Assembly: GCA_000182565.2 (NCBI GenBank)
Contig: KQ257453.1
Strand: one strand, 5' to 3'
Length of the DNA stretch: 64,000 nt
Source: Spizellomyces punctatus DAOM BR117
Lineage: Eukaryota
In this document: positions 7,001-56,590 of the stretch, one piece after another
How positions within the stretch are numbered: the first letter of the stretch is position 1
How the letters are laid out: every line of letters starts with the position of its first letter
Translations under genes and position numbers: made by a program
The notes under the pieces: generated by a model
The model's input: the letters and a program-made list of their open reading frames with translations, nothing else
Told to the model about the DNA's origin: nothing
The model's database searches: none

Positions 7001-10000
7001 AAGATGAGAAGGCGGCCATTGAAGTTACATACCGTGCGCGGCGAAAGGATGGGCGATGGCTGGAGATGGAGGGTAAAGGAATGGTAAACTTTGACCGCAC
7101 TACCGGGCAGAAGCGGAGTACGATTTGGGTTACACGACCTGTGGCCTTACTTGGAGAGGAGTGGGATGACGTTGCGGAGAGTAGTGAAGATGGAGAAGAA
7201 AGATTGGGCGGAGAAGAACATCAGCAGAGTCCCGTCGGGATTCACATTGCCAGTATCGACACTGATCGTAATAGCCCCGTAAGAATTCGAAGTTCACCAG
7301 TTTCCTCGCCATCAGTTACAGTCGAGCCCCCAACTCCGCTCTCCAGTAACAACATGTTAAATGCACTTCCGTCTCTTGATCTGGTTCTCTGCAATATATG
7401 CGAGCGCTCAGTGCCAGCGGTTCTTTTCGAAGAACATACTGAATCCTGCAGCGAAGTACATCGGATTGAAATGGATCTGATGTTGGTGAATGACGAGTTG
7501 CGAGACGCTAAAACCCAGTGCTTGGAGCGAATCAGAGTACTTGAGCTGGAGATGACGGGAGATGGCGAGGATGAATGCGAACGGAGACTGTATGAAGAGT
7601 ATGCGAAGCGATTGCTTGGCATCACGCATTCCGTATTAAACGTGATCGAGGATATCCTTGCAATTCCCATACCTGATGCCGTGGATGATGTGTGCGATGA
7701 TCTGGAAGGAGGGGACAGTGGTCAAGAGGATGGGGAAGATGACCGCGTGCTGCTGCGAAATCGAAGTCATCTTATGTTGACCTCGCATGAGTCAAGCTTA
7801 CGACGGCGTTCAAGCGTCACATCCCGCATGCAACAACTTGTGAACTGGAAACCACCGGCAGAGTCTGAATTCTACCCACCGGAAGTTCCTTCGACGTCCA
7901 CACTCTCGGCGCTAAAAGCTCTGGACTATCTTCACACAGACACTAACACTCCACCTGCAATTGATACGGCGATGGTGGGCCTTGGACTGGGTATTTACCA
8001 CCTTGCTACTGACGTTGAGTCGCTTGTCAAATCCAAGTGTGAGGGTTGCGAGAGAATGAGAAGCGTTGTTGGGCGATATAGGGAATTGGCCGTAGAGGAG
8101 GAAGCGATCAAGGTTGAGATTGGGGTGCAGACAGGTACCATCGCCGTTGACGAACGTGATCCCGGAGGGACAGAAGTTGGTGGAGTGTTTGTGCGCGAAG
8201 TTGAGAGTGGAAGTGATGCGGATGAGAAAGGGAAGAACAATAGCCGGAGCACAAATAAGCGTGCGGATGGGCGCCCGTCGAGTGGCGCTCGCTCACCTGG
8301 ATCTAAACGAAAAGACCGGCGAAAGGGACGTCGAAAAAAAGGCAGCGGAAAGGCCGTGGGTAGCCCTGAAGCGCTGAACATTGACACCCATAAGCACGCC
8401 CGTAGTGCCAGTCCCCGCCCGAGAATGGTGGTGAACAAAAATAAAACGTTGCAAGTCGAGTTGATATCCTCACCGATGATTAGCTCGCCGAGGTTAGGGA
8501 GATCAGGCTCGTCTTATTTCGCATCAAGTTTAAATCAGGCGGCTCCGGTGGGCACGTCCATGGGATCGTCTCCATTTAGTGGACAAGCTTCGGGAACGGT
8601 GGGGAATCTGACACCTTCGAGTAGTGCTGCTGGTGGTCCTGGCACACCCCCCTCAGCCAATGCAGCCATTCAGCGCTCTGTGCCAAGTATCAAAGACTTT
8701 GACATTATCAAACCGATATCCAAAGGTGCATTCGGTTCAGTTTACCTAGCCAAGAAACGCCTGACTGGAGACTATTACGCTATCAAAGTCCTCAAAAAGG
8801 CTGACATGGTGGCTAAGAATCAAGTGATGAATATCAAAGCGGAACGGATGATTTTAACACAATTGGACAGCCCGTTTGTTGTTAAACTGTACTTTTCGTT
8901 TCAAAGCCGAGACAATCTTTATCTTGTGATGGAATATCTGAACGGAGGTGATTGTGCTGCTCTCATCAAAGCTGTGGGATGTTTGGATGAGAAGTGGGCT
9001 GGGCAATACATTGCGGAGGTGGTTTTGGGATTGGAGTTTTTGCACAGCAGAGGGATTGTTCATCGGTGGGTGTGATGTTGTGGCCGATCGAGCCAAGGAT
9101 TACACTCTAACACATCTTCTTTAGGGATTTGAAACCGGACAACCTTTTGATTGATCAAGATGGTCACGTAAAATTGACCGACTTTGGTCTCTCTAGGGTC
9201 GGATTTCTTGGTCGTCGTGCGCGAGATTCGTTCTTGAACCCTTCATCAAATTCCTCATCCAACAACACAAACGCCCCCGGCAGTCCGATAATTGGTGCTG
9301 TCCCTACCTACCCAATTTCCACTACCACCCCTACGACACCAACTTTCTCACCATCTTCACCATTCAAACTGGGGGAACATCTGTATGGGGTCTCATCTCC
9401 GTATGCGCTGGGACGGCATAGTCGACGGAGCAGTGTCGCTAGTAATGGCAGTATGGGAAGTGAGAGAGATGAGATTGGAAGTTCTGGTAAGGTTTTTGTG
9501 GGTACACCCGATTATTTGGCTCCGGAAAGTATTTTGGGCTTAGGGCAGGGAACCAGTGTTGATTGGGTATGTTTTGCGCCCTTCTGTTGAAATGAGTCCT
9601 TTCGTTTTTTTGCTGATCTTGCGTTTTGATTGTCGCAGTGGGCTCTCGGTGTAATTTTTTACGAATTTCTCTTCGGGATTCCCCCTTTCCACGCTGCAAC
9701 ACCGTCGCAAGTCTTTGAGAATATTCTTACCCGCCGTATCGACTGGCACGAAGACGACTTCGAGCTATCCCCAGAAGCACGCTGTTTGATGGAAAGTCTA
9801 ATGTGCACCGACATAGAGTCTCGTTTGGGAACCAAAGGTGCCTATGAAGTGAAACGACATGCCTTTTTCCGCGAAATGGATTGGTCCACCGTCATGAAGG
9901 AGGAGGCATCATTCGTCCCCAATACGAAGGGAATGGAGGACACAGATTACTTTGATGATCGAGGCATTTTGGAAGCGGGTATGGATGTGGATGAGGATGA

Positions 10001-33867: not shown

Positions 33868-36710
33868 AACATTCCATAACCCCGCATGGATGACGTGTTG
33901 TTCTGAACTACACATCGTAAAAACTTTAAAATCTTCCTCCGAAGAATATCCCCTTGTTTCCATAACCTTAATGCACCCGATTTTGTGGACCAGACCAGTC
34001 CTCCGAGCCGAGCGGCCTTCCGCAAGGTCAGGGGGTTGGCCCCTCTCCGAGGTGTCCACATTCCATATTCTCGGAGCGATGACATCGAATTCATAACCTT
34101 AATCCACGCGCGCGGGCGGTTGGCCGCTCTCCGAGTTGTCGACAGTATTCCATATTCTCGGAGCGATGACATTGAATTCATAATTTTAATCTACACGTGC
34201 GGGCGGTTGGCCGCTCTCCGAGTTGTCTACAGCATTCCATATTCCCGGAGCGATGACATCGAATTCATCTGCACGCATGCCCACGCGCGGGCGGTTGGCC
34301 CCTCCGAATTGTCCACATTCCGTGACTTCGAATTCATCTGCACGCCTCTCCGAGTTGTCGACCATATTCCATATTCCCGGAGCGATGACATCGAATTCAT
34401 ATCCTTAATCCACGCGCGCGGGGCGCTCCGAGTTGTCGATGGTATTCCATATTCCCGGATCGATGACATCGAGATCATAACCTTAATCTACGCGGTTCTT
34501 CATATCCCCTTAATGGACCCCAGTTTGTGGGCCCTTACCCGAATCAAAATGTCCTACATTGCCGGTCCAACCGTTGAAAATTAAGCTTCCGCGGCCATCC
34601 ATATTCCCGGGTCAATGACGTTGTTGTTTGCCGAATAAATCTCGGAGCACCAAAGAGAATTATTCCACATTCAAGTCGAATCCCGTAGCATGTACACACT
34701 CCGTACATCGTGTCACTATACACGCGAACGGGCTCGTCAGTGATTGGCTACGTTTACACCCGGAACGATTCTTGGTGTACTCGCCAATTAGTTTTCCTTT
34801 CAATGCCAAGTAGGAGAGAATTATAGAAAGTTTTTCCGCCGCACTCGGGAAGTAAAAACCCTAGGGGAACATTCATCTGCAGAATCAAGAGCGGTGCATC
34901 AAAGCCCATCACATATATTGCGGAAACGAGCGATGTACGTGATTCTTCGATTAATCGTACAACACAGCGTCTGTATGCAATTTCTTTGTCGATATGTCAC
35001 CCAATTCTGACCAGAGCTCCATCTCCCAGTACAACGATGGCAAGAGGCTCGTTTCGGGATCGAGGAATGCCGGTCGTGAGACCGTACCCTTGCCGATGCA
35101 CTTCCATGCAAGGCGAGGAGCCAATCGCGGTGTGAATCTGGCAAAAAATATGCGCCTTTGCGCAGTTGCCAATAGCAGTCAGGAGTGATGACTTTCTCTC
35201 ATAAAATGGCGCAACCGTTGTCCCATCTCCCCATCATTGTCTCGCTCACCCATCTTCAAATCGCTCGGGAACAGCGGTTTTTGCCTTCTCTCTTGACGTA
35301 ACACTTACGCTTGACTGTCAGCCCTAAAATGGGAGCGTCCCATTCCTCCTTCATCTACTGCAATGGGTGTCTGCGAATTGAGAAACCGGTAAAGTTGGGC
35401 AGTTTGTGCTAGAGTTGATGGGCGAACCATGGGTCAAGCTTCCCATGGGATCGGAGGAGAATACCTTAAGAACTTTAATTTGTCACACCTGGAGATTTGC
35501 ACCAATGATGCTTACCGTCCGTGTCTCGGGGTAAGGATACACGATGCTACGGTAGGTGTCCTCACATCCCATTGAATTGCTGCTCGTTTTTGGTGGAAGA
35601 TGCCATTGCATTGGCCTATGGCAAGGAAGCATTGATCCGCAAAGCCTTTCGTAAAATCGATCATCAATTCCTACGATGGCGCTGTGTATGAAGTCAAACC
35701 TTTGGAAACATCTTTGCTGAAAAGAGTGTCGATACGCTTACTGCCAGAGATGCCGGAGAGTTTGAGCTTATTGTATTGTCCAAACGGGAGAAAATGAAAT
35801 TGCTGAAACGGAGGCTGAAGAGGACTAAACTTGAATCTGGCGACTCTAATTACAGAAAATAGCATTGTTTGGAAAATGATCATTTTATGGACGAGACAAG
35901 GAAGTTTGCTCAATTTCGGGGATATTTTTGGAGCTATGTCCCATGGAGTCTGCCTTCAGTAGGACGATGAACATAACCTCACTGCAGACGAGATAGTGAG
36001 TATGAGATTAGATAATGGGATTTGCTGCGCCGTTTCATCCATCTCCTACTGCGATCGGCAAAGTTTATCATTTGGGGTCATAAGTTCGAGGACGAGATGC
36101 ACCCGAATCAAGTCCCCGAATTTGGGCCGCTTCCGCCTTTGTTTTAGGTGAGTGCTCAAGTGAAAAGATATTCGAGGGCAATTGGACGTGGCGTCAGCGT
36201 TTGTACATTCTTGTCACACAGCCATACGCAAGTAGGACTGACCTGCTATATCGCCGCTAACGATAGCGCTAAAGATAGCGCTAAAATGAACATGAGGAAT
36301 CTGCGGGAGGTGATCATGTATGGAACCGGACGATGGGACGATCCGAGTGGAACTTGTCGACAATGTCGAGTTATTGACGTCAGAGCTTAAACTTTAAAAT
36401 CCTAATCGCAATCGATTCCACAATTCGAACATTCCATAGTGCGGGTCAATGATGTCTGTTAACCTTAATAACCTTAAACAACCCGAGTTTATGGTTTCGT
36501 GAACTCAACTGCGATGGTCTTTGATCCGGTGTGATGGATCGGAGATACCGGCGTTCTGGAAAGTAACGGTCGCGATCTGATCCACAAACTGGGGTGCATT
36601 TAGAGTTATATTATTCGCCAAAGAGCGACGTCATTGACCCGGGAATATGGAATCAGGGTTACGGCGTTGTGAAAGCCTCGCTTCAAGCTTTGGACCAGCC
36701 CACAAACATG
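33868..36710. mobile_element. Putative non-autonomous foldback/TIR-type DNA element with a decayed interior
   Basis: 41-bp inverted repeat, 34598-34638 versus 36611-36651 (37/41 identical, first 24 nt perfect), built from the same motif as the tandem array. No transposase and no clear target-site duplication. Confidence 0.5.
34034..34530. repeat. Tandem array of about 87-bp units (ATTCCATATTCYCGGAGCGATGACATCGAATTCAT...GGGCGGTTGGCCGCTCTCCGAGTTGTC)
   Basis: Unit anchors at 34060, 34147 and 34234 (87-bp period), a partial unit at about 34317, then 34366 and 34444. Confidence 0.95.
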
Positions 36711-38164: not shown

Positions 38165-39457
38165 TCAGACGGCCCTATGGACCAAATTTTGTACAATCTG
38201 TTTAATGATTCTAACGGATCGAATGACATCGTCCTTCTTTACAAACTCCTTTTCTGAATGCGCCACTAGAATTGATCCCGGTCCAAACAAGAGGGGTTTT
38301 TGTGTTCCTTTCAGGTATGGAATATCTTTCGATTCGAATGAGTAAATTGCTAAAGGTCGACGGAGGACACAAAGTTCTCACCAGTAAAATATCTCGCAAC
38401 AAACTTTTCCACACCATCCACGTCTACAGTTTCACATCTAACAGGGTTTTGCATCCCTCTGATAGTGAGAGTGACATGCACACCATCTGTACGAGGTTGC
38501 TCAACGATGGTCCGTAGTTGGGCAGCAACCTGTTCTGCATTCGTCGAGACACGGAAAGATATATCCGCTCGTGCATCTTCGGGGATGACATTGGCTGCAA
38601 CTCCTCCGGATATCTGGCCGAGATTCAGAGTAGTGGCGCCCAAAACGGGATCACTTGGCCATTCCTTTTCAGTGTGTGACCGTCAGCAACTTTGGATAAT
38701 GACAGTAGACTGTATTTCTATGATCAGCTTACCGTATGCTGCAAATCGTGCAATATATCCACTAAAGCAGCGATAGCTGATTTACCCCGTTCTGGATATC
38801 CACTGTGTCCCGCTTGACCTTTCACGACAATGTCCGCTTTGATCATCCCCTTGTGACCTTCTGCTATCATCATTTCAGTGGGTTCCCCGACAAGAAGATA
38901 TTGAGCATTGATATTAAGGGAATTGGCAGCTATCATTCCAATGTGATTCGTCTCTTCGCCTACGACATAGAGAAGCCTGAGTGATATGGTTTAGTCCATA
39001 AGTTCGGGCTACAAATTGGTATACGAATTGACACATACCCAACATCCTCTTCAGCTATCTTTCCCTCCTCAATCAAATCTTCGACTGCACAAATCTGTGC
39101 GGCGACACTTGCTTTTGCATCACAGCTTCCGCGCCCGTATAGGTTTTCGTCATCCTCACTCAACTCAATGTGCGGAGGGACAGTATCGACATGCGAGTTC
39201 AATAGTACTTTAACATTTGTCCGGATATTGTCAGTTTCGGGCTTGGAGCGATATGCATAAATATTATGTCTGACAGGTGAAGAGTCGGGGATCGGCTGCA
39301 GATGCACATGCCAGCCCTGCTGCGTCAGGTACGTCTTGAGAAAGTCTACCACAGACTGCTCTTGGAGAGTGGTAGACCGTATCGATATAAGAGATCGCAG
39401 GAGGGTGAGGACTTTGCTTTGAGATGGCATGGAAGTCTCTGTTGACTGAGCGCCCAT
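38165..39457 (-). CDS. M20 family metallopeptidase / acetylornithine deacetylase (ArgE-like)
   Basis: LLNSHVDTVPP, LYGRGSCDAKA, VGEE, GEPT, GQAGHS, TTLNLGQISGGVAANVIP, LFGPGSILVAHS; stop at 38167-38165. Confidence 0.92.
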
Positions 39458-39789
39458 TTTCGACCATCAACTTCAACTCAACAAGATGGCGGGGAAGATC
39501 TTCGAGGAGCATCGCCGACAATACTCTCACGTGACCGACTCTCCCATTTAGCCATTTTAGGGCGGGATGCTGCCTAGGATGTGATGTTTATCTTGATATC
39601 TACACTAGACGTTATTGCTGTTCCATGCCCACGGCTTTAACACAAAGCGACAACCGACAATATGCATTCATGATACAGGTAACCTAGACCTATTCTAACA
39701 ATGGATCGTAACTAGAGTGTACGGTGACACTCTGGGCCTTAATGAGCATTCAACATCAACAGTAAACTTTGAGCATCGGTTCTCGCACC

Positions 39790-40600
39790 ACCTATCTCCT
39801 GCATGACCACACAAACCGCCGCCTGATGACCACAATAAAACTCAATCTGACCAAGAGTATTTCAATACGATGATGTACAATACGAGGGTTGCTTGATATG
39901 CTTGCTCGTATTGTTTGGATACATCTTGTCACAATCGTTACCCGATGAATGACTGCAATAAACTGTTTAGCGACGGGACAGTAAACGTATTTGTTCAATT
40001 CCCTTGTAGAACCCTGGAGTGTTTACAAACGTTCATCTGTTTGTGTTTTGTACATCTTGATTGGGATGCCATCTATTGTCCGTATGGAAATGTCACCCAT
40101 AGCCGAGAATCTACCCAACAATACTAAACTTTATTTGTCAGGCAAATACGGTAAATGAACTTGGGAGTCAAGACCTTTTCGATCGGGAAATACAATCAAA
40201 GTATGTAGCTTCCGGGACTTTTAGTCCTTTGATGCAAGCCGACTGGATTAGAATACTTGGTAGTCCGGCTTGAGCCCACTCAATCACTTTACGATGATTG
40301 TACAGAGACAAAACATCCAAATTCCAGATCTCTGATTGATCTTTGTTACAGTAAAGACATATTCTAAATGCCAATGGACCTTGCGGAGACTTGATCTCTG
40401 ATGACAAGGACAAGTAATCAAATTGCCCACTGTCAATGTTGGAAGACATTTGAACCGGCCTATCTTGTCAACAAAAAAGCTGACAGATGCTGCAACATTT
40501 TGCATCCTGCGGGATTTGAACTCTCCAACAAGCTACCACTCCACCACCGTTCACCAATGGGGCAGCCCAAGATGCAGATTGCAATGCATTGATTCAATCA
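39790..40600 (-). pseudogene. Decayed coding remnant with CxxC pairs
   Basis: One frame reads ...KCCSICQLFC*QDRPVQMSSN...RICLYCNK...SKRS* with in-frame stops. Family not recognised. Confidence 0.25.
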
Positions 40601-41109
40601 AATGCGCACAGTGACGTATCAGTCACGATAGCAGTGTGATTGGAATTTGATTGCAGTGTGCCAAAAAAAGGTGCCCTTTGGTTAACTGTGGTTGAATGGT
40701 AACTGCTTACTAAGATGAATTAGTTACGGCACAATACTTTTGCCGATATCTGGACATTTCACGTAATCAAAAAGCGCGTCCGAAAGCTACGCGTTTGACT
40801 GCGCAGTGGCCAGCCAGCTCTACGACGTTTTCGCACTGGTTTTGACTTGAGTTTTCACACATTGACAATAATAAATTGACACAGATCCTCTGGGATATGC
40901 ATGGCGTACATTCGCACTTATGTTAGTGTTCAAAAAAAATCATGCACATATCATGAATGTTTTGCTGGCAGCTGTCCCATCTACAGCGCAGCATCCCATA
41001 CGAACGGTCATGTCTCCAAACGTATCTTGCAACGAGCCCAATGCGAACCTTTCGTTTGAGAGGAACAAAATACCTCATCATGACCAGACTCATCACCAGA
41101 CGACCGTCG

Positions 41110-41414
41110 TTGAGCCAATCAGCGTTCGTTCATGCGAGTCCTCGTTCGTCACAAGAACGACGACGGTGATGGTGTGATATCGTTCTTGAGCCAATCAGAG
41201 TGCAGAACGATTGCGTATTGTCGCAGAAAGACATTGTTGGGCCAATCAGAGTGCAGAATGATTGCGTATTCTCGTCGTTGAGCCAATCAGAATGCACAAC
41301 GATTGCGAATCGTCACCCGCCGTCGTCGTTGAGCCAATCAGAATACGTCCATGCGAACGGCTGTCGTCATTCAAGAAGGTTCGTTCAAGTGATATCCTTC
41401 TTTGAGCCAATCAG
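41110..41414 (+). promoter_or_regulatory. Array of six CCAAT (NF-Y/Hap) boxes, TTGRGCCAATCAG
   Basis: Copies at 41110, 41186, 41237, 41278, 41329 and 41402, all in one orientation and matching the RRCCAATCAG consensus. Confidence 0.75.
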
Positions 41415-42771
41415 AATGCAAAAACGTAAGCGCTTCCATCATAAAAGAATCCAAAGGAGAAGGAAAAGAACGCGTTCGTAGTGTGAAATTGGGCAATATT
41501 ACCTTCTCCGTGTTCTTTTAATTGGCCCCCCTCGGGCCATCTGCTGCGCGTAACGCGTTTCCGCTGGGGGAATGGGGAATTATGGGGGGGATTCCCCCCA
41601 AGCATAAAAGGACGACCCATTCCCGCATCCCCCGGCTCTTTTTCCTTTGTATCCCTCTTCGTGCCCCTACCGACTTTCACTCCTCAGACACGTCTGTTGG
41701 GTGGTATTGGATGTTTTGTCTCGTACAATCATCTTAAATGCATGTGACTTTCCTGGGTGATTTAGCGATCCACGGCGTCGTGCCAGCAACGTTGTGGTGA
41801 GCGGTCATTTGGGGGGTTGGGTCGAGCGACACCCTGAGTCGACAACAGTGAGCTTGGTTCCGTATGCTCCTGTGCAACCCGGCTAGGTCCCGGAGCTGAG
41901 GGCCCCGCTTCGTGCCGCGTTCTCTAATAAGACCACCTACGAGGAACCTTGTGGGTAACAACGGGCAGGTGCTCGGTCAAAGTCTTCCGACCGCAAGCGA
42001 GGTTGACGCAACCCTTGGGGTGTTGCTCTTGGGGCATTCAAGGGAAAGAGCAACACGGCCTACACGACAACGACGACATCGCGAAAATGGCAACGGGGCG
42101 GTACGCGGACCCCCATCGTTTCGGAACGCTAGGTTCGGCTTCTGTCGGGCTCATCCGGAGCGAGCGAAGGCGAGGGTCGCACGGGTCCCCTGTTCCTTGA
42201 GTTCAGGATGGCCGCGTGCTCCCGATCAACGCATTGTGCTGCGTCGAGGAGCGGCACAGCGATGCCCGCGTCCTGTCACGCCCGTTCTGGTGAGGATCTT
42301 GGTTTTCTATTCGACCTTGTCTTGTATCTCTTCTGATCACTTTTTTTTTCATAGGGCCGACTTATCTGACCAGTCCTGGTAAGCATCTTGCTTTCTCTTT
42401 TCTTTTTTTACTTCATTCATACTAATCATTCTTTTGCTTTTATAGTCGGAGCGACACCAATGGGCCGCCCCATCCAGGCGCTAAACTGGTAGCTGTGTAT
42501 TCGGACCAAGGCCGAGGATTCCGCGGTCTCCGTTTCTCTCCGGTGTACGTCGGTGGCGATGAGTGAGCGTGCTTAACCTGGCTCCTGAGCATCAAAGCCG
42601 GTCGTGGTGTAATCCGGGCAGCGGGTTGAACCGGTTCTCGGTCAACTTGGTTGATACTGGGGGCTATACGGTCAGGTGGGCTAGCTGCAAAGTGAGCAGC
42701 TAGCCAAATCCTTCCCGGGTGGGCACTTGCGCTTGAGCCTGATCAACTCAGGCGCAAGCGGCTCACCGAAT

Positions 42772-43080
42772 ATTGGTTGGTGCGAGGGCTTGTGTTGGTT
42801 GTTGGCTTGTTGGTTCTGAGGGCGTCACTGTACATACTTGGTTGGTGCGAGGGCTTGTGTTGGTTGTTGGCTTTTGAGCTGCGAACTTGGTGATCCCAAG
42901 GTCCTGGCTAGCGAGGTTCAATTCCTTGCTTTCTTGTAAATACTTGTTGGTCGTTGGCTTGTGTTGGTTGTTGGCTTGTGTTGGTTGTTGGCTTGTGTTG
43001 GTTCTGAGGGCTTCACTGTACATATTTGGTTGGTCGTTGGCTTGTGTTGGTGCGAGGGCTTGTGTTGGGTGCTGGCTTGT
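42772..43080. repeat. GT-rich minisatellite, about 18-bp unit GGCTTGTGTTGGT(TGTT/GCGAG), inside a ~205-bp duplication
   Basis: Directly visible. The module GAGCTGCGAACTTGG...GAGGTTCAAYTCCTT occurs at 42876 and 43081. Confidence 0.9.
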
Positions 43081-43189
43081 GAGCTGCGAACTTGGCGATC
43101 CCAAGGTCCTGGCTAGTGAGGTTCAACTCCTTACACCCGGCGTTGTGGGGTCCGATCCCCCATTTCGCCACTGCTACATACAAAAACAC

Positions 43190-43243
43190 AGAGGAGTGCC
43201 AAATTGGTTGGCTTTAGGGGTTCGACTCCCCGCTTCCTTTTTT
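43190..43243 (+). other. tRNA-like element lacking an anticodon arm
   Basis: AGAGGAG / T / GCC-AAATTGGTT-GGC (D arm with GG) / TTTA / GGGG-TTCGACT-CCCC (T arm) / GC / TTCCTTT, running into T6. Confidence 0.6.
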
Positions 43244-44716
43244 ATAATCTGCTCGAGACTCTTACGACGACGACGACGACGAAATGCAAAACTCGAACTC
43301 TTACGGCGAGCAAGTCTCGAATCAGTCGATCTGGCGATGCCGGAAAAGTCTTCGCAACAGCGATTTTGGTCAGCGGCAAGAGATTGAAAACGGCGACGAT
43401 CAAGAAGAGCAGATGGTCCATCTACTTTGCTTCAGTGCCAGTTTCGAGTATTTCACGACAGCTGAAAGGAACGTGAGGTTCAAGCATTTCGCTCAAGCAT
43501 TTCGAAACGACGTAGAATTCTCGGCTACGACCATCTTGGAGAACAATGGAGAGTACTAAAAACGCAGTTGAAGCAGTTGGCTCGTACACGTTTCAAACTG
43601 GCATTGTGGAAAGGCAAACTGTCTACGACAACTCTAAAAGGACGAGGTGTTCAAGCATTTCGAAAGTGAAATAACGCGCATTTGCTACGACAACTTTCAA
43701 GGTCCGACGTGGAAAGTCCTTCATATCGCTCAAGTGTTTTCGTCAGTTGCATATCCGTCAGTGGCATATCCAACGGCAATTGTGAAGACGGGAAGGTTGG
43801 AGCAAGTAGATAGTGGCATATCTGGGTCAAACGGAACACTCTTTGCATTTCAAATGATTGATATGCAAGGACGGTTCACCAAAGCATGTCGAAGTACAAG
43901 CATTTCGAACCGACATTGCAAACAATTGCTACGACATCAAAGGACGGTCCAAGTATTTTCATATCGGCCAGGCGCTTCAACGGTTGCAAAATACCGCTAG
44001 TCTACAAATAATTATCAAGGACGTACGATCGGAAGCAAAATCACAACATCAGCTCACCTTCAGTACCGATAACCGAGCCATTTTTTGTTCCGCAACGAAA
44101 TCATGTACAAAAAGAGGGAGTAAGGTCTACCTAGTACTTTCCGATAGCATCGCTGAGACGGACGTTCAAGCATGTTAAAGTGGTAACCGGTATTTTGTTG
44201 ACAAGAACTCTCGACGTCGGAGATTTTCATGCGTTTCGAAAGGTGACATGTGCGGACGGATAGTGTTCATGCTGGCATTCTTATGTCGGCTCGATAACCC
44301 GGCTATGATCGTGCTAGGCTGGTTCAAAAGGTTGCATTTTTGTAACTTTATATAGCGACGAACCCTACATGGCGCTGAGGATAAAAGCGTTGATCGTCAG
44401 TTGTCGAGGGTTTTGTGGGAAAAGAGGTGGTAAATGGTATCTTGAAAGTCTACGACTTTGCTTGTCATTGGAAGCAATTGGCGAGTAATAAAAATATAAT
44501 TTGGCAAAGGTGGGCGGACAGTCAATAGATGGTAACAGATTATCATAATACAAATATACAAACAGATCGACCCCGACAAAGTCATAACAACTACCATATT
44601 TTTTTTTCATCATTCCGCTACAAGTTTGCTCAGAATGAGTCCAACTAGGACATACAAAAAACTGCCATAAGGGGAATCTACACATATACAATACAAAAAA
44701 AAAAAATCCAAAATGT

Positions 44717-45480
44717 TCATAGACCGATAACGATCATCAGAGTCGTGAGTCCAGCGACAGCCAATCCTGTCATCAAAGACGTTCCAACACGGTCAACCGA
44801 GGACTTTGAGCCAGGTGCAGGTGTCTGCGTCGAGCCCGGGGTCGTCGTTGCGGAGGTAGATGGTGGTTGGGGTGTACCGGTAGGTACCGACGCTGGAGGA
44901 TTCAGACTAATAGGATCATTCAAGCCTCGTTCGACGACTTTAAATTCCCGAAGGGAGACGGTCCAGTAGTTCCATTGTCCATCCGGTAATTTGACATCTC
45001 CTCTCGCAGCGAATTTCCAGGTCGCATTAGGCTTCAAGAGTGCGTCCACTTGTTCTTTGGTCGTACCGGGTGCGGCTCCTACTGTCCAGTTTGCGCCAAA
45101 GCGGGTTGCACTGCCAATGTCTGGGATGTGTTCCGCGAGGCCAATGTCGGTGTAGAGGGTTTGGAGGGCAGAAGTGGCTTGATTGGGTGTAGGAGGAGGG
45201 CCGTAGGTTAGGTAGAATTTGTGTGTCGGAACTGGGTCCATGATGCCAAAATCGATAGCGATGAGATAGTTGGTGCCAATGGTATACTGGTCTTCAGCGA
45301 GGAAGACTGGATCGGCTTTGGCTGAAAAATAATGTGCCCCAGTGTCAAAGAGCAGCTTCAAAAACCGTCCAAGGACACGCACCCATTGAGACGAAACATA
45401 CCCAGCGGTGTAGCTAGCAACGCCATCGCTACCAGGATTGAGTAATGCATGGTATCGGAAATGTGTTGCGAAAGAGTAGG
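44717..45480 (-). CDS. Secreted/GPI-anchored surface protein (5' end not resolved)
   Basis: Globular region, then a Pro/Thr/Ser stalk and a hydrophobic C-terminus (SSVDRVGTSLMTGLAVAGLTTLMIVIGL); intron starting at about 45382. Confidence 0.65.
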
Positions 45481-54309: not shown

Positions 54310-56590
54310 CTAAGCATGAGCTTTCCGCCTCATAAACAACCTACTATGCTCCAAATCTAATTCAAACACCCCCTTTTTCCTAGGTTCACCCACAGCAGTA
54401 TGTCGTTTCTGTGGAGCAGGTGAATAAGGAACGACGCCTCCTCGGACTGTTCCAATGGGTTCCGGTACCGTTTCCCCCTCGGCAATGGATTGATAGACTG
54501 CAAACGGAGCGCCCAGCATTTCCTTTGTAATACCGTCCGGGATGGGATGGGGGGTTTTGATGCGGTGGTAGGGTGTGGGCGGGGACGCGGCGGGGGCGGC
54601 TGTAGGGGGTGTATGAAGGGTCGGTAGGGCCGGCCAGGAAGGATATGTGCGTTTAGAAGGGTGGGAAAAGGTTTCGCCTTTCATCCATGGATGAGCAAGG
54701 AATTGGTCAATCGTGTAGCGCTTGGCGGGGTCCACTTCGAGGAGGTGGCAAATCACGTCCTTGGCTTCGGCGGAAATGTCGTCCCACCAAGGGGATAGGA
54801 ATGCGAATTGGCCATTCGCGACTTTTTCAGTAAGGCCTCGAGGATCGTCGTCAAAGAACGGGGGAAAGCCAGAGAGGAGGGTGTATAACACGCAGCCGAG
54901 GGCCCACATGTCAACACCCTTGGAGTAACGTTGATCGCGGAGGATTTCGGGGGCAGTGTACCCAACGGTTCCGCAAGGCGTTTTGGTCGTGGCGTCGAAT
55001 ACAACTTTGGAGAGACCGAAATCGGCGATTTTGACGAGTCCGATTCCGGCGCCGCCTATACCGGGGACATAATCGTCTTGTACATGTTCATCTCCCGTTT
55101 TGCGGATCGTGCGGATGGGGTTGGGTGGTATGGGTTCAAAAAGGAGGTTTTCCAATTTAATGTCCCGGTGCACGACGCCGCGTTCTTGGTGGAGGTACCG
55201 GAGGGCGTCACCGACTTGTTTCACAATGTGTCTGCAGATGGATTCGCTAAAGCAGACTTGGCTGACGAGTTGATGAAAGATTTCGCCCCCGGATGCGAGT
55301 TCGAGGACGAGGGCGTAGTGGAGGGGGGTTTCGTGAAAGTCGACAAGGCGGATAATGTTTGGATGGGAGAGACGGCGAAGGAGGGATGTTTCACGGAGGA
55401 CATTGTTGCGCTGGGACGAACCGAGAGTTTTCGCATGAGACCTCCCAAAGCATCTCGTCAAGTACAGAACAAAGCTTACCTGCTGCTCATTCAACTGATG
55501 TTTGGCAACGAGTTTGAGTGCGACCAAATAATTTGTTTTGGTATCAATTGCTTTGTACACGATACTAAATGCGCCCCTATCAAACGAGAAGGAGAAAAAC
55601 AGGGTGAGCAATATTGTCACTTTAATTGACGCACACAATCGGTGACGCTCTCAAGCGCCATGCGTCTTGCTCCCTGCCCGCATGCCCCCCATGACGAGCG
55701 TTAACGGTGAGCGCTAGCGAGTCATGTCCCAAACTCCAAAAACTAACCCAAGCCCAACTCGAACGCAAAAGCGAACGCAAAGACCAACCCGAACCCGGGC
55801 ACGAACACGGGCCCGAAGCCGAACACGAACCCTAACCCAAACGCTAAACTAACGGAACCTAATCCAAACTCTAACCCAAAACCCTAAACGTAAACGACAC
55901 TTACTCTCCCATTTTATCTACAAGCCGATAGCGATTCATGTAAGGATAAGCGGCCACAACGGGCTTTTCCCAATCCGCCTTGCTGGCGACATGAACATAG
56001 TCTCGAACTTCAGCAGTCTTTTCCACGACGCTAGTTTCATCCCAGCGGATCCCTTTTTGCCGTTCCTTGCGCGATTGTTCCTTGCGAGTCTGTTTAACGT
56101 GTCGTTCATCAATGTCTTTTGGGGGTCTAGCGAGCTCAGAGTCCATCTCTTTTGGCAGTGCCTTCTTTACGAGTTCAGAGTCTAGTAGAGAGGAGCGTTT
56201 CTTTTTCCGCCTTGTCTTTGTCGTTGTTGTTGTCGTTGACGATGAAGGTGCTTGACGTGACGAACTGTGAGTCGAGAGGGAGAGGGAGGATAAAATGTGT
56301 GAAAACCAGCTCTTGTCCTCGTCGTCCTTGTGTTTTGGAGAAGGAGTGGTCGAGTTTGAGACGGACGAAGAAGAAGAAGACGAGGACGGGGAATCCGAGG
56401 GGGAAGGCGTCAAAGAAGAAGAAGAAGAAGAATAAGAATCCTCTGGTAAAGGAACCGTGTGAGGAGTGTGCTTGTGGTGGAGAGGTGAGTCTACTCTGGT
56501 GCTGTTGTTTGTCGAATGGGCAAGATCGCCTGGCTCTTGGGGGGCAGACGAAGAAGAAGGACGAAGAAAAGAAAGCAAGTTGGATGCCAT
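54310..56590 (-). CDS. RCK2: CAMK-family MAPK-activated kinase, Rck2/Srk1-like
   Basis: YRLVDKMGE|GAFSIV, HRDIKLENLLFEPI, the family-typical insert ending PGIGGAGIGLVKIADFGLSK, TPCGTVGYTAPE. Introns at 55904-55577 and 55479-55411. Confidence 0.85.

Follow-up and report, generated by a model that had tools for sequence, protein, structure and literature searches.

A twice-spliced non-coding RNA with a duplicated 3' domain of T-loop hairpins in the chytrid Spizellomyces punctatus

A stretch of 64,000 nucleotides (nt) from Spizellomyces punctatus DAOM BR117 (contig KQ257453.1 of assembly GCA_000182565.2), referred to here as the window, contains at 41.1-43.3 kilobases (kb) a real, twice-spliced RNA gene, transcribed from the + strand behind a TATA/CCAAT promoter. 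Its RNA is non-coding, with no open reading frame (ORF) of coding character. A first-pass annotation made from the sequence alone had proposed that a CCAAT-driven, spliced and structured RNA was encoded here, ending in repeats punctuated by tRNA mimics, and that it was either a processed polycistronic RNA or the RNA of a non-autonomous retroelement. The spliced non-coding RNA, its structured middle and its T-arm-like hairpins have withstood analysis; complete tRNA mimics, cleavage at them and a retroelement origin found no support in it. The explanation favoured here, though tentatively, is that the locus is a genuine long non-coding RNA gene, not described before, whose duplicated 3' domain would be a platform for RNA-binding proteins. 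To our knowledge almost nothing has been established about non-coding RNA genes in chytrids, and the locus offers a clean and experimentally tractable example, with confirmed splice sites, a microexon and a six-box CCAAT promoter.

Transcription and splicing

A search of public sequencing runs returned 14 rows containing at least part of the stretch, from seven studies, and four runs were mapped on 40500-44500: X1, a small run; X2 and X3, both root metatranscriptomes; and X15, which provides raw stranded reads. Two introns flanking a 24-nt microexon had been predicted, and the RNA is spliced at exactly those positions in public contigs and reads. The first joint (42288>42354) skips 65 nt and the second (42377>42445) skips 67 nt, each having GT..AG ends after a one-base shift and each being carried by one contig from X2 and one from X1, so that both joints are supported by two runs from two studies. 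Six X15 reads stop matching at 42290 and then read on into the microexon sequence. The joint-crossing X15 reads belong to the class with the first mate on the + strand, the minus class having a depth of 0 in that bin, and since the introns are GT..AG on the + strand it follows that the first mate is sense in X15 and that the RNA lies on the + strand. The parts of the transcription unit are as follows.

41640-42289, + strand: exon 1, GC-rich, 5' end approximate (depth and contigs; fold z = -0.30; codon-usage score -0.03 to -0.105 in three frames)
42290-42354, + strand: intron 1, 65 nt, GT..AG (X2 and X1 contigs; six X15 reads across)
42355-42378, + strand: microexon, 24 nt (one X2 contig carries 42354-42377 between the two joints)
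42379-42445, + strand: intron 2, 67 nt, GT..AG (X2 and X1 contigs)
42446-43185, + strand: exon 3, 3' end approximate at 43180-43200 (fall in X15 + strand depth; last X1 contig ends at 43152)

The mature RNA is about 1.4 kb long. Depth on the + strand in X15 is 4-26 over 41572-42375 and 42778-43179, contig depth in X1 is 25-39, and the contigs of X2 and X3, including a 309-nt X3 contig of exon 1, show 0 differences from the window. At the 3' end the X15 depth on the + strand is 25.9 in 43046-43179 as against 0.57 in 43180-43313, and X1 has none beyond 43179. This loss of coverage at about 43180-43200, some 40-60 nt 5' of a run of six T residues (T6), indicates that the fourth of the T-loops described below, together with T6, probably lies outside the stable RNA. 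Judged by the type of promoter and the spliceosomal introns, transcription would be by RNA polymerase II (Pol II); with spliceosomal introns, a TATA/CCAAT promoter and no coding capacity, the locus has the features of a spliced Pol II long non-coding RNA gene.

Coding capacity

The longest ORF beginning with ATG in the spliced form encodes 51 amino acids, in line with the figure of about 50 given in the first-pass annotation, and no frame is open through the spliced RNA. A codon-usage score was trained on five Pfam-supported ORFs of the window, with five held-out ORFs as a control; the spliced RNA scored -0.07 to -0.10 in all three frames, as against +0.10 to +0.155 in frame for the held-out ORFs, and the two best candidate ORFs of the RNA scored -0.027 and -0.054. 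A phmmer search of 1.84 billion proteins, which took in the 160-residue open frame at 41900-42379 only, gave one match (E = 2.8e-8), consisting of 14 stretches of a 964-residue protein and read here as low complexity. The combination of an open frame, host codon usage and homologues that marks a protein-coding gene is absent.

A decayed or small protein gene has nevertheless to be considered, either in the form of a frame running through both introns and broken by a single TGA at 42198, or in that of a translated 51-residue ORF spanning both junctions. The exon-intron layout does resemble that of a coding gene and the 160-residue frame is open, but the negative codon usage in every frame, the low scores of both candidate ORFs, the solitary low-complexity match for the frame that was queried and the lack of a Pfam family in the nearby scanned ORFs make such a gene highly improbable. 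A selenoprotein reading of the TGA at 42198 was tried and rejected: the hairpin at 42558-42593 has, by eye, the AUGA..AA..GA arrangement of a selenocysteine insertion sequence with an upper helix of just 4-5 base pairs (bp), and has no Rfam match.

Folding and the duplicated 3' domain

The description of the RNA as structured applies to 42446-42775 and to the short T-loop hairpins, but not to exon 1 or to the GT-rich domain. The multi-hairpin domain that had been proposed was borne out, 42446-42775 folding with z = -2.91 and more stably than all 100 shuffled sequences, with hairpins at 42558-42593, 42606-42632, 42633-42665, 42679-42705 and 42718-42767; the hairpin proposed at 42020-42056 is likewise present, with an 11-bp stem. 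Exon 1 folds at chance level (z = -0.30). Shuffled versions of the GT-rich domain fold better than the domain itself (z = +3.0), which on this modelling is probably largely single-stranded GU-rich RNA broken up by short hairpins.

The GT-rich repeats themselves are present as reported, Tandem Repeats Finder giving a period of 17, 3.5 copies and 97% matches at 42945-43003, and they lie within two larger repeat units (42769-42941 and 42942-43179) that are 81% alike. In both copies the order is GT-rich 17-mers, TGTACATA, further GT-rich sequence and a double hairpin, and unit 2 has in addition an extra minihelix-like T-loop hairpin (43139-43169). The features of the 3' part of the locus are listed below.

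42558-42767, + strand: hairpin domain, including a perfect 10-bp hairpin at 42679-42705 and an adjoining 19-bp hairpin at 42718-42767 (z = -2.91)
42769-42941, + strand: repeat unit 1, with GU-rich 17-mers, UGUACAUA (42829), a GU-rich tract, a double hairpin composed of 42877-42909 and the T-loop hairpin 42910-42930, and UGUAAAUA (42935)
42942-43179, + strand: repeat unit 2, ordered as unit 1, with UGUACAUA at 43017 and a double hairpin composed of 43082-43114 and the T-loop hairpin 43116-43134
43190-43240, + strand: closing stem, small hairpin and fourth T-loop hairpin, a tRNA-like shape lacking a D-arm and apparently outside the stable RNA (fold, depth)
43238-43243, + strand: T6 run (sequence)

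The duplication of the units is recent (100% identity over 36 nt, 93% over 87 nt). The two copies of the 52-nt double-hairpin core differ at three positions, two of them in loops and one in the 5' half of a stem pair whose partner is altered too; this pair of the T-loop stem is C-G in one unit as against U-A in the other, a suggestive compensatory change. Three of the 13 UGUAHAUA sites of the window fall within 200 nt here.

T-loop hairpins and the question of tRNA mimicry

Exact matches to GGTTCRANTCC, the T-loop or B-box consensus, number three in the window on either strand (42915, 43120 and 43219, all +), a number reached in 0 of 100 shuffles (mean 0.37), and all of them are concentrated in the duplicated 3' module. 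In both double hairpins the second hairpin combines a stem of 6-7 bp with the loop TTCAAYT; the hairpin at 43139-43169 has a degenerate T-loop, UCCGAUC, and folds with z = -2.89; and the fourth T-loop hairpin (43217-43231, loop TTCGACT) sits inside the closing stem 43190-43240. All four T-loop stems and the T6 run of the first-pass annotation are thus present, but the last T-loop and T6 are probably not part of the stable RNA. As T-arms the hairpins are canonical, the closing pair G53-C61 and the loop U54 U55 C56 R57 A58 being exact in three and altered by U55>C in one.

They do not, however, amount to complete tRNAs. ARAGORN at its default setting found 0 tRNA genes in the 64 kb; at a threshold of 80% it gave two weak cloverleaves that fall in different registers in the two paralogous units, and its mitochondrial mode at a relaxed threshold gave seven overlapping calls, which were treated as noise. 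Rfam had no match, whether in 39000-45000 (E<=1), in the entire window at gathering scores or in 42750-43300 (E<=10), so that neither Rfam nor ARAGORN at its default setting recognises a tRNA or tRNA-like cloverleaf. The loop of the apical hairpin is 5 nt long in both units, with a first base that is not the same in the two, which is unlike an anticodon loop. Cleavage at the supposed mimics fared no better, there being no site among the mapped runs at which many molecules start or stop; with no discrete internal ends, punctuation by cleavage is without support. Over 43180-43313 X1 has no depth and X15 a depth of 0.57, contigs and 60-nt reads being unreliable for an RNA of about 50 nt. Transcripts punctuated by tRNAs are familiar from the mitochondrial punctuation model and from the dicistronic tRNA-snoRNA transcripts of plants; the T-arm-like elements here similarly lie between repeated RNA segments, but they are not full tRNAs and no discrete ends occur at them.

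An important consideration is how the 3' end of the RNA is formed. In vertebrates the long non-coding RNAs MALAT1 (which gives rise to mascRNA) and MEN-beta (NEAT1_2) undergo 3' end processing at a tRNA-like structure, and by analogy RNase P would read the closing stem and T-arm of 43190-43240 and cut at about 43189, leaving a non-polyadenylated end and an unstable small product. Such a scheme accommodates the halt of X15 and X1 coverage at about 43180-43200, just 5' of the structure, the succession of closing stem, small hairpin, canonical T-loop and U tract at 43190-43243, and the resemblance of the hairpin at 43139-43169 to an acceptor/T-arm minihelix (z = -2.89). The vertebrate RNAs share with the present one a Pol II origin and a closed-stem structure bearing a T-arm at the 3' side, just 5' of which coverage ends. 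The RNA described here is, however, spliced, has no recognised triple-helix element and no cloverleaf by ARAGORN default or Rfam, even at E<=10, and has three further internal T-loop hairpins without visible cleavage, and no released small RNA was seen. Moreover, the closing-stem structure is not more stable than shuffled sequence (z = -0.6 to -0.75, the latter for 43186-43243), no sharp 3' end is seen among the mapped runs, and a conventional poly(A) site at this position would account for the coverage equally well. There is an A-rich ACAAAAACAC at 43180-43189, and matching U-rich motifs for a triple helix were not seen by eye, no formal search having been made. On balance a MALAT1-like 3' end is quite unlikely. 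A broader version, given a similarly small chance, is that of a chytrid Pol II non-coding RNA whose 3' end is formed by tRNA-processing enzymes at 43190-43240 and whose internal T-arm hairpins recruit to a GU-rich scaffold proteins that read tRNAs, which may be pseudouridine and methyl transferases, the CCA-adding enzyme or export factors. Were the MALAT1 principle to apply, the formation of 3' ends at tRNA-like elements in nuclear long non-coding RNAs would extend far outside the vertebrates; a literature search at the level of titles and abstract openings found no mascRNA-like system in fungi and no description of a long non-coding or other non-coding RNA in Spizellomyces.

The same sequences can be looked at as DNA. 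Extra-TFIIIC (ETC) sites are clusters of B boxes at chromatin boundaries in yeasts, and the four B-box-like sequences here might be sites of this kind at which bound TFIIIC acts as a boundary or as a roadblock that ends Pol II transcription. All three exact B-box matches of the window occur within 315 nt where the transcription unit ends, as a consensus cluster with no detectable A box or tRNA gene, and T6 follows the last of them. Against this, transcription is not stopped by two of the three exact boxes, which are found well within the RNA at 60 and 265 nt from its end, and each box of this one-strand cluster is held in a stem-loop, one with a compensatory change, which argues for constraint on the RNA or an origin from tRNA and not for a bare protein site. 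The DNA-level reading is very unlikely. If tRNA enzymes or TFIIIC recognise the T-loop hairpins, the locus would illustrate, for an early-diverging fungus, how tRNA-derived modules are put to new use in the biology of nuclear RNA or of chromatin; otherwise it is still a useful annotated non-coding gene, and a caution that T-arm hairpins by themselves do not make a tRNA mimic.

Two further candidates were considered. B boxes and T6 are present as in a short interspersed nuclear element derived from a tRNA, but an A box was not recognised by eye and there is no other copy in the window. A telomerase RNA was rejected, no template-sense (C-strand) match to any of eight repeat types being found on the + strand over 41572-43243 and no Rfam match; the telomere-repeat matches in the range (41791, 41813, 41814 and 43214) are all in the sense of the G strand. 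On the minus strand at 40470-40560, to the left of a divergent transcript, there is a B-box-like GAGTTCAAATCCC followed by T6. The idea that it mirrors the fourth T-loop unit was dropped, alignment and fold (z = -1.3) being unconvincing.

Promoter region

The 5' side of the locus has the following features.

41112-41415, + strand: CCAAT array of the CCAAT/NF-Y type, six copies of GAGCCAATCAGA (shuffle test), flanked by divergent transcribed regions
41566-41599, + strand: G-rich GGGGAAT repeats ending in the palindrome GGGGGGGATTCCCCCC, immediately 5' of the TATA-like box (sequence; a function could only be conjectural)
41602-41610, + strand: TATA-like box CATAAAAGG (sequence; the start would lie about 30 nt 3' of the box)

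Both the CCAAT array and the TATA-like box had been noted from the sequence and were found where they had been placed. With up to one mismatch allowed, GAGCCAATCAGA has seven matches in the window, six of which make up the array, all on the + strand, and the seventh of which (a near-match at 7525) lacks CCAAT; seven were reached in 0 of 100 shuffles (mean 0.34). Within the array GAGCCAATCAGA is exact in four boxes and has one mismatch in two, and the boxes are embedded in longer repeat units of 33-84 nt. There are two TATA-like boxes of the form CATAAAAG, one at 41439-41447, directly after the sixth CCAAT box and with no reads following it, and the other at 41602-41610. X15 depth is 0 on both strands in bin 41438-41571 and 7.69 on the + strand in bin 41572-41705, in agreement with a start some 30 nt past the second box, placing the beginning of the + strand transcript at about 41.64 kb, 225 nt 3' of the array. 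A divergent minus-strand transcript covers about 40634-41437 at a depth of 1-7 in X15, without a convincing ORF, and starts within or beside the array, so that the array evidently belongs to a bidirectional promoter region.

The 33-nt inverted repeat and the mobile-element question

Two inverted 33-nt elements, 1386 nt apart, enclose the CCAAT array together with the start of the RNA.

40288-40320, - strand: left copy of the 33-nt element (TTGGATGTTTTGTCTC..TACAATCATC..TAAA; blastn 93.9% over 33 nt, E 8e-7)
41707-41738, + strand: right copy, inside exon 1 (blastn, gapped local alignment)

The gapped local score of the pair is 54, as against a shuffle maximum of 26. A large inverted duplication flanking the array was tried and rejected, the other alignments scoring 19-24 (shuffle mean 22.8, maximum 26), so that just the 33-nt element exceeds chance. 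At 41707-41738 the X1 contig reaches a depth of 1378, and 110 of 122 X15 reads have a T inserted after 41722 and unlike sequence on both sides; from the extra T and the unlike flanks it follows that this peak comes from another, more abundant RNA encoded elsewhere, a third copy of the element. An ORF at 40171-40449 on the minus strand, overlapping the left repeat, has no homologue (51-163-residue range) and no Pfam family. The sequence arrangement suggests that a mobile element whose ends are the inverted 33-nt repeats may have brought in the promoter region or may bracket it.

It has been reported (PMC10432273) that S. punctatus has 42 Fanzor loci and 134 gene-less 'ghost' Spu-1 elements, the latter having inverted repeats of 30 nt and expressing guide RNAs about 90 nt long whose sequence continues through the right repeat into flanking DNA. 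The likeness to the ghost elements lies in the organism, in inverted repeats of about 30 nt around a gene-less element, and in a repeat that also occurs in an abundant RNA running past the repeat end into unlike flank. The differences are an interior of 1386 nt here as against about 550 nt and a junction of CATT or CACTTT here as against a CATA motif, and the canonical guide RNA positions G70, A72 and A75 could not be fitted by hand (PMC10432273). Where a ghost element would have CA ahead of its left repeat, CA directly precedes the 33-nt repeat on the 41738 side only, and the scaffolds 5' of the two copies resemble neither one another nor the abundant RNA. Literature text had no match to the element's 14-nt core, with 0 occurrences in PMC10432273, and no Fanzor gene was recognised in the window, its two long ORFs without a Pfam family having no relative in PDB. 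A relationship of the 33-nt element to the ghost elements is therefore a lead, and a doubtful one, and not a finding.

The RNA itself could be that of a non-autonomous retroelement, primed or processed via tRNA-like 3' units, as one alternative in the first-pass annotation had it. The T-arm-like units near its 3' end and the repeat element within its 5' end are in keeping with this, but there is no second copy of the RNA body in the 64 kb, there are no flanking direct repeats, and the genomic copy keeps the introns that a retrocopy would lack. No long direct or inverted repeats of the kind borne by elements with long terminal repeats, DIRS elements or their non-LTR counterparts flank 41.1-43.3 kb, and no reverse transcriptase, integrase, tyrosine recombinase (YR), transposase, nuclease or TnpB domain was found by Pfam in the scanned 30 of the 38 window ORFs of at least 150 residues. 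The retroelement reading can hardly be maintained.

Function of the RNA

Under the explanation favoured here the RNA would be made by Pol II and would work as RNA, the duplicated 3' domain forming a multivalent platform to which the binding of proteins is predicted. Each unit would present single-stranded GU-rich 17-mers, then a UGUAMAUA motif, a GU-rich tract and a double hairpin of which the second is a canonical T-arm, and the T-loop hairpins would be structural or protein-recognition modules, for example for enzymes that read T-arms, and not complete punctuating tRNA mimics. The promoter region would perhaps have been imported or bracketed by the mobile element with 33-nt inverted ends. 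NORAD is a 'sponge' RNA of repeat units with Pumilio sites, and it resembles the present RNA in having tandem units that pair UGUANAUA-type motifs with a short stem-loop, three such motifs occurring here in 200 nt. It differs in that the RNA here has just two units, with the motifs in recently duplicated sequence, a chytrid host and putative PUF sites, and in that the GU-rich 17-mer which dominates here is lacking in NORAD.

A number of points weigh against this explanation. The UGUAMAUA and CUUG-rich motifs sit in repeated units, so that they cannot be counted as independent occurrences; the compensatory change happened just once, between paralogues of recent origin; and exon 1, as noted, folds at chance level. 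Searches for homologues gave 0 matches in metagenome contigs (with a 20-nt piece of the double hairpin and with the 33-nt pattern), in contigs of prokaryote genomes and in viral contigs. In X15 the sense depth is 0.7-0.8 across 42376-42643, where reads of the opposite class reach 9.6-11.3, and the 5' and 3' parts could perhaps be separate stable RNAs; X2 and X1 contigs are colinear and spliced through 42445-42564, where the X15 sense reads nearly vanish. The reversal may stem from an antisense RNA, from priming at the two T-rich introns, whose minus strand is A-rich, or from a library effect.

Several of these points would be expected if the RNA were a by-product, that is, if a strong bidirectional CCAAT promoter, possibly borne by a mobile element with the 33-nt repeats, simply read into gene-free DNA whose flank by chance contains signals for splicing, a GT-rich minisatellite and remnants of tRNA 3' halves. 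The RNA would then have no sequence-specific role, and at most the act of transcription would matter for the neighbours. The inverted pair brackets the promoter and reaches into the 5' end of the RNA, several short transcribed patches without a coding ORF alternate in strand over 39.5-44.7 kb, exon 1 is unstructured, the repeat units are recent duplicates and no homologues were found in metagenome, genome or viral contigs. Against a mere by-product, however, stand clean splicing that includes a 24-nt microexon in contigs of two runs, a contig depth of 25-39 in so small a run as X1, paralogous double hairpins whose differences are in loops or compensatory, and the confinement of the three exact T-loop consensus sites to one strand and to stems. 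It is accordingly judged unlikely, though it has to be taken seriously.

Surroundings of the locus

The desaturase ORF with a cytochrome-b5 domain that neighbours the locus shares 94% identity with SPPG_02874 of Spizellomyces punctatus DAOM BR117, as against 70% for the match ranked second, and the other neighbours include a Rim15-like PAS-kinase-receiver gene, kinases, and M17 and M20 peptidases, the M20 peptidase gene being at 38350-39466 on the minus strand. About 5 kb (39500-44700) is without a protein-like ORF and has at least five transcribed patches that alternate in strand. One of these, on the minus strand, is at 43582-44250, where there is also an X2 contig (43709-43953), and a 27-nt motif is repeated at 43465, 43636 and 43881. 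Further off, five tandem copies of an 87-nt repeat at 34018-34500 stand beside an inverted pair of 41 nt and 90% identity (34598-34638 and 36611-36651, 1972 nt apart), and the repeats of 34018-36651 may represent another DNA transposon with subterminal repeats. Between two minus-strand ORFs at 55720-55895 there is a degenerate CA-rich telomere-like tract of the AACCCNAAC type, with AACCCTAACCC at 55828 and AAAACCCTAAAC at 55878.

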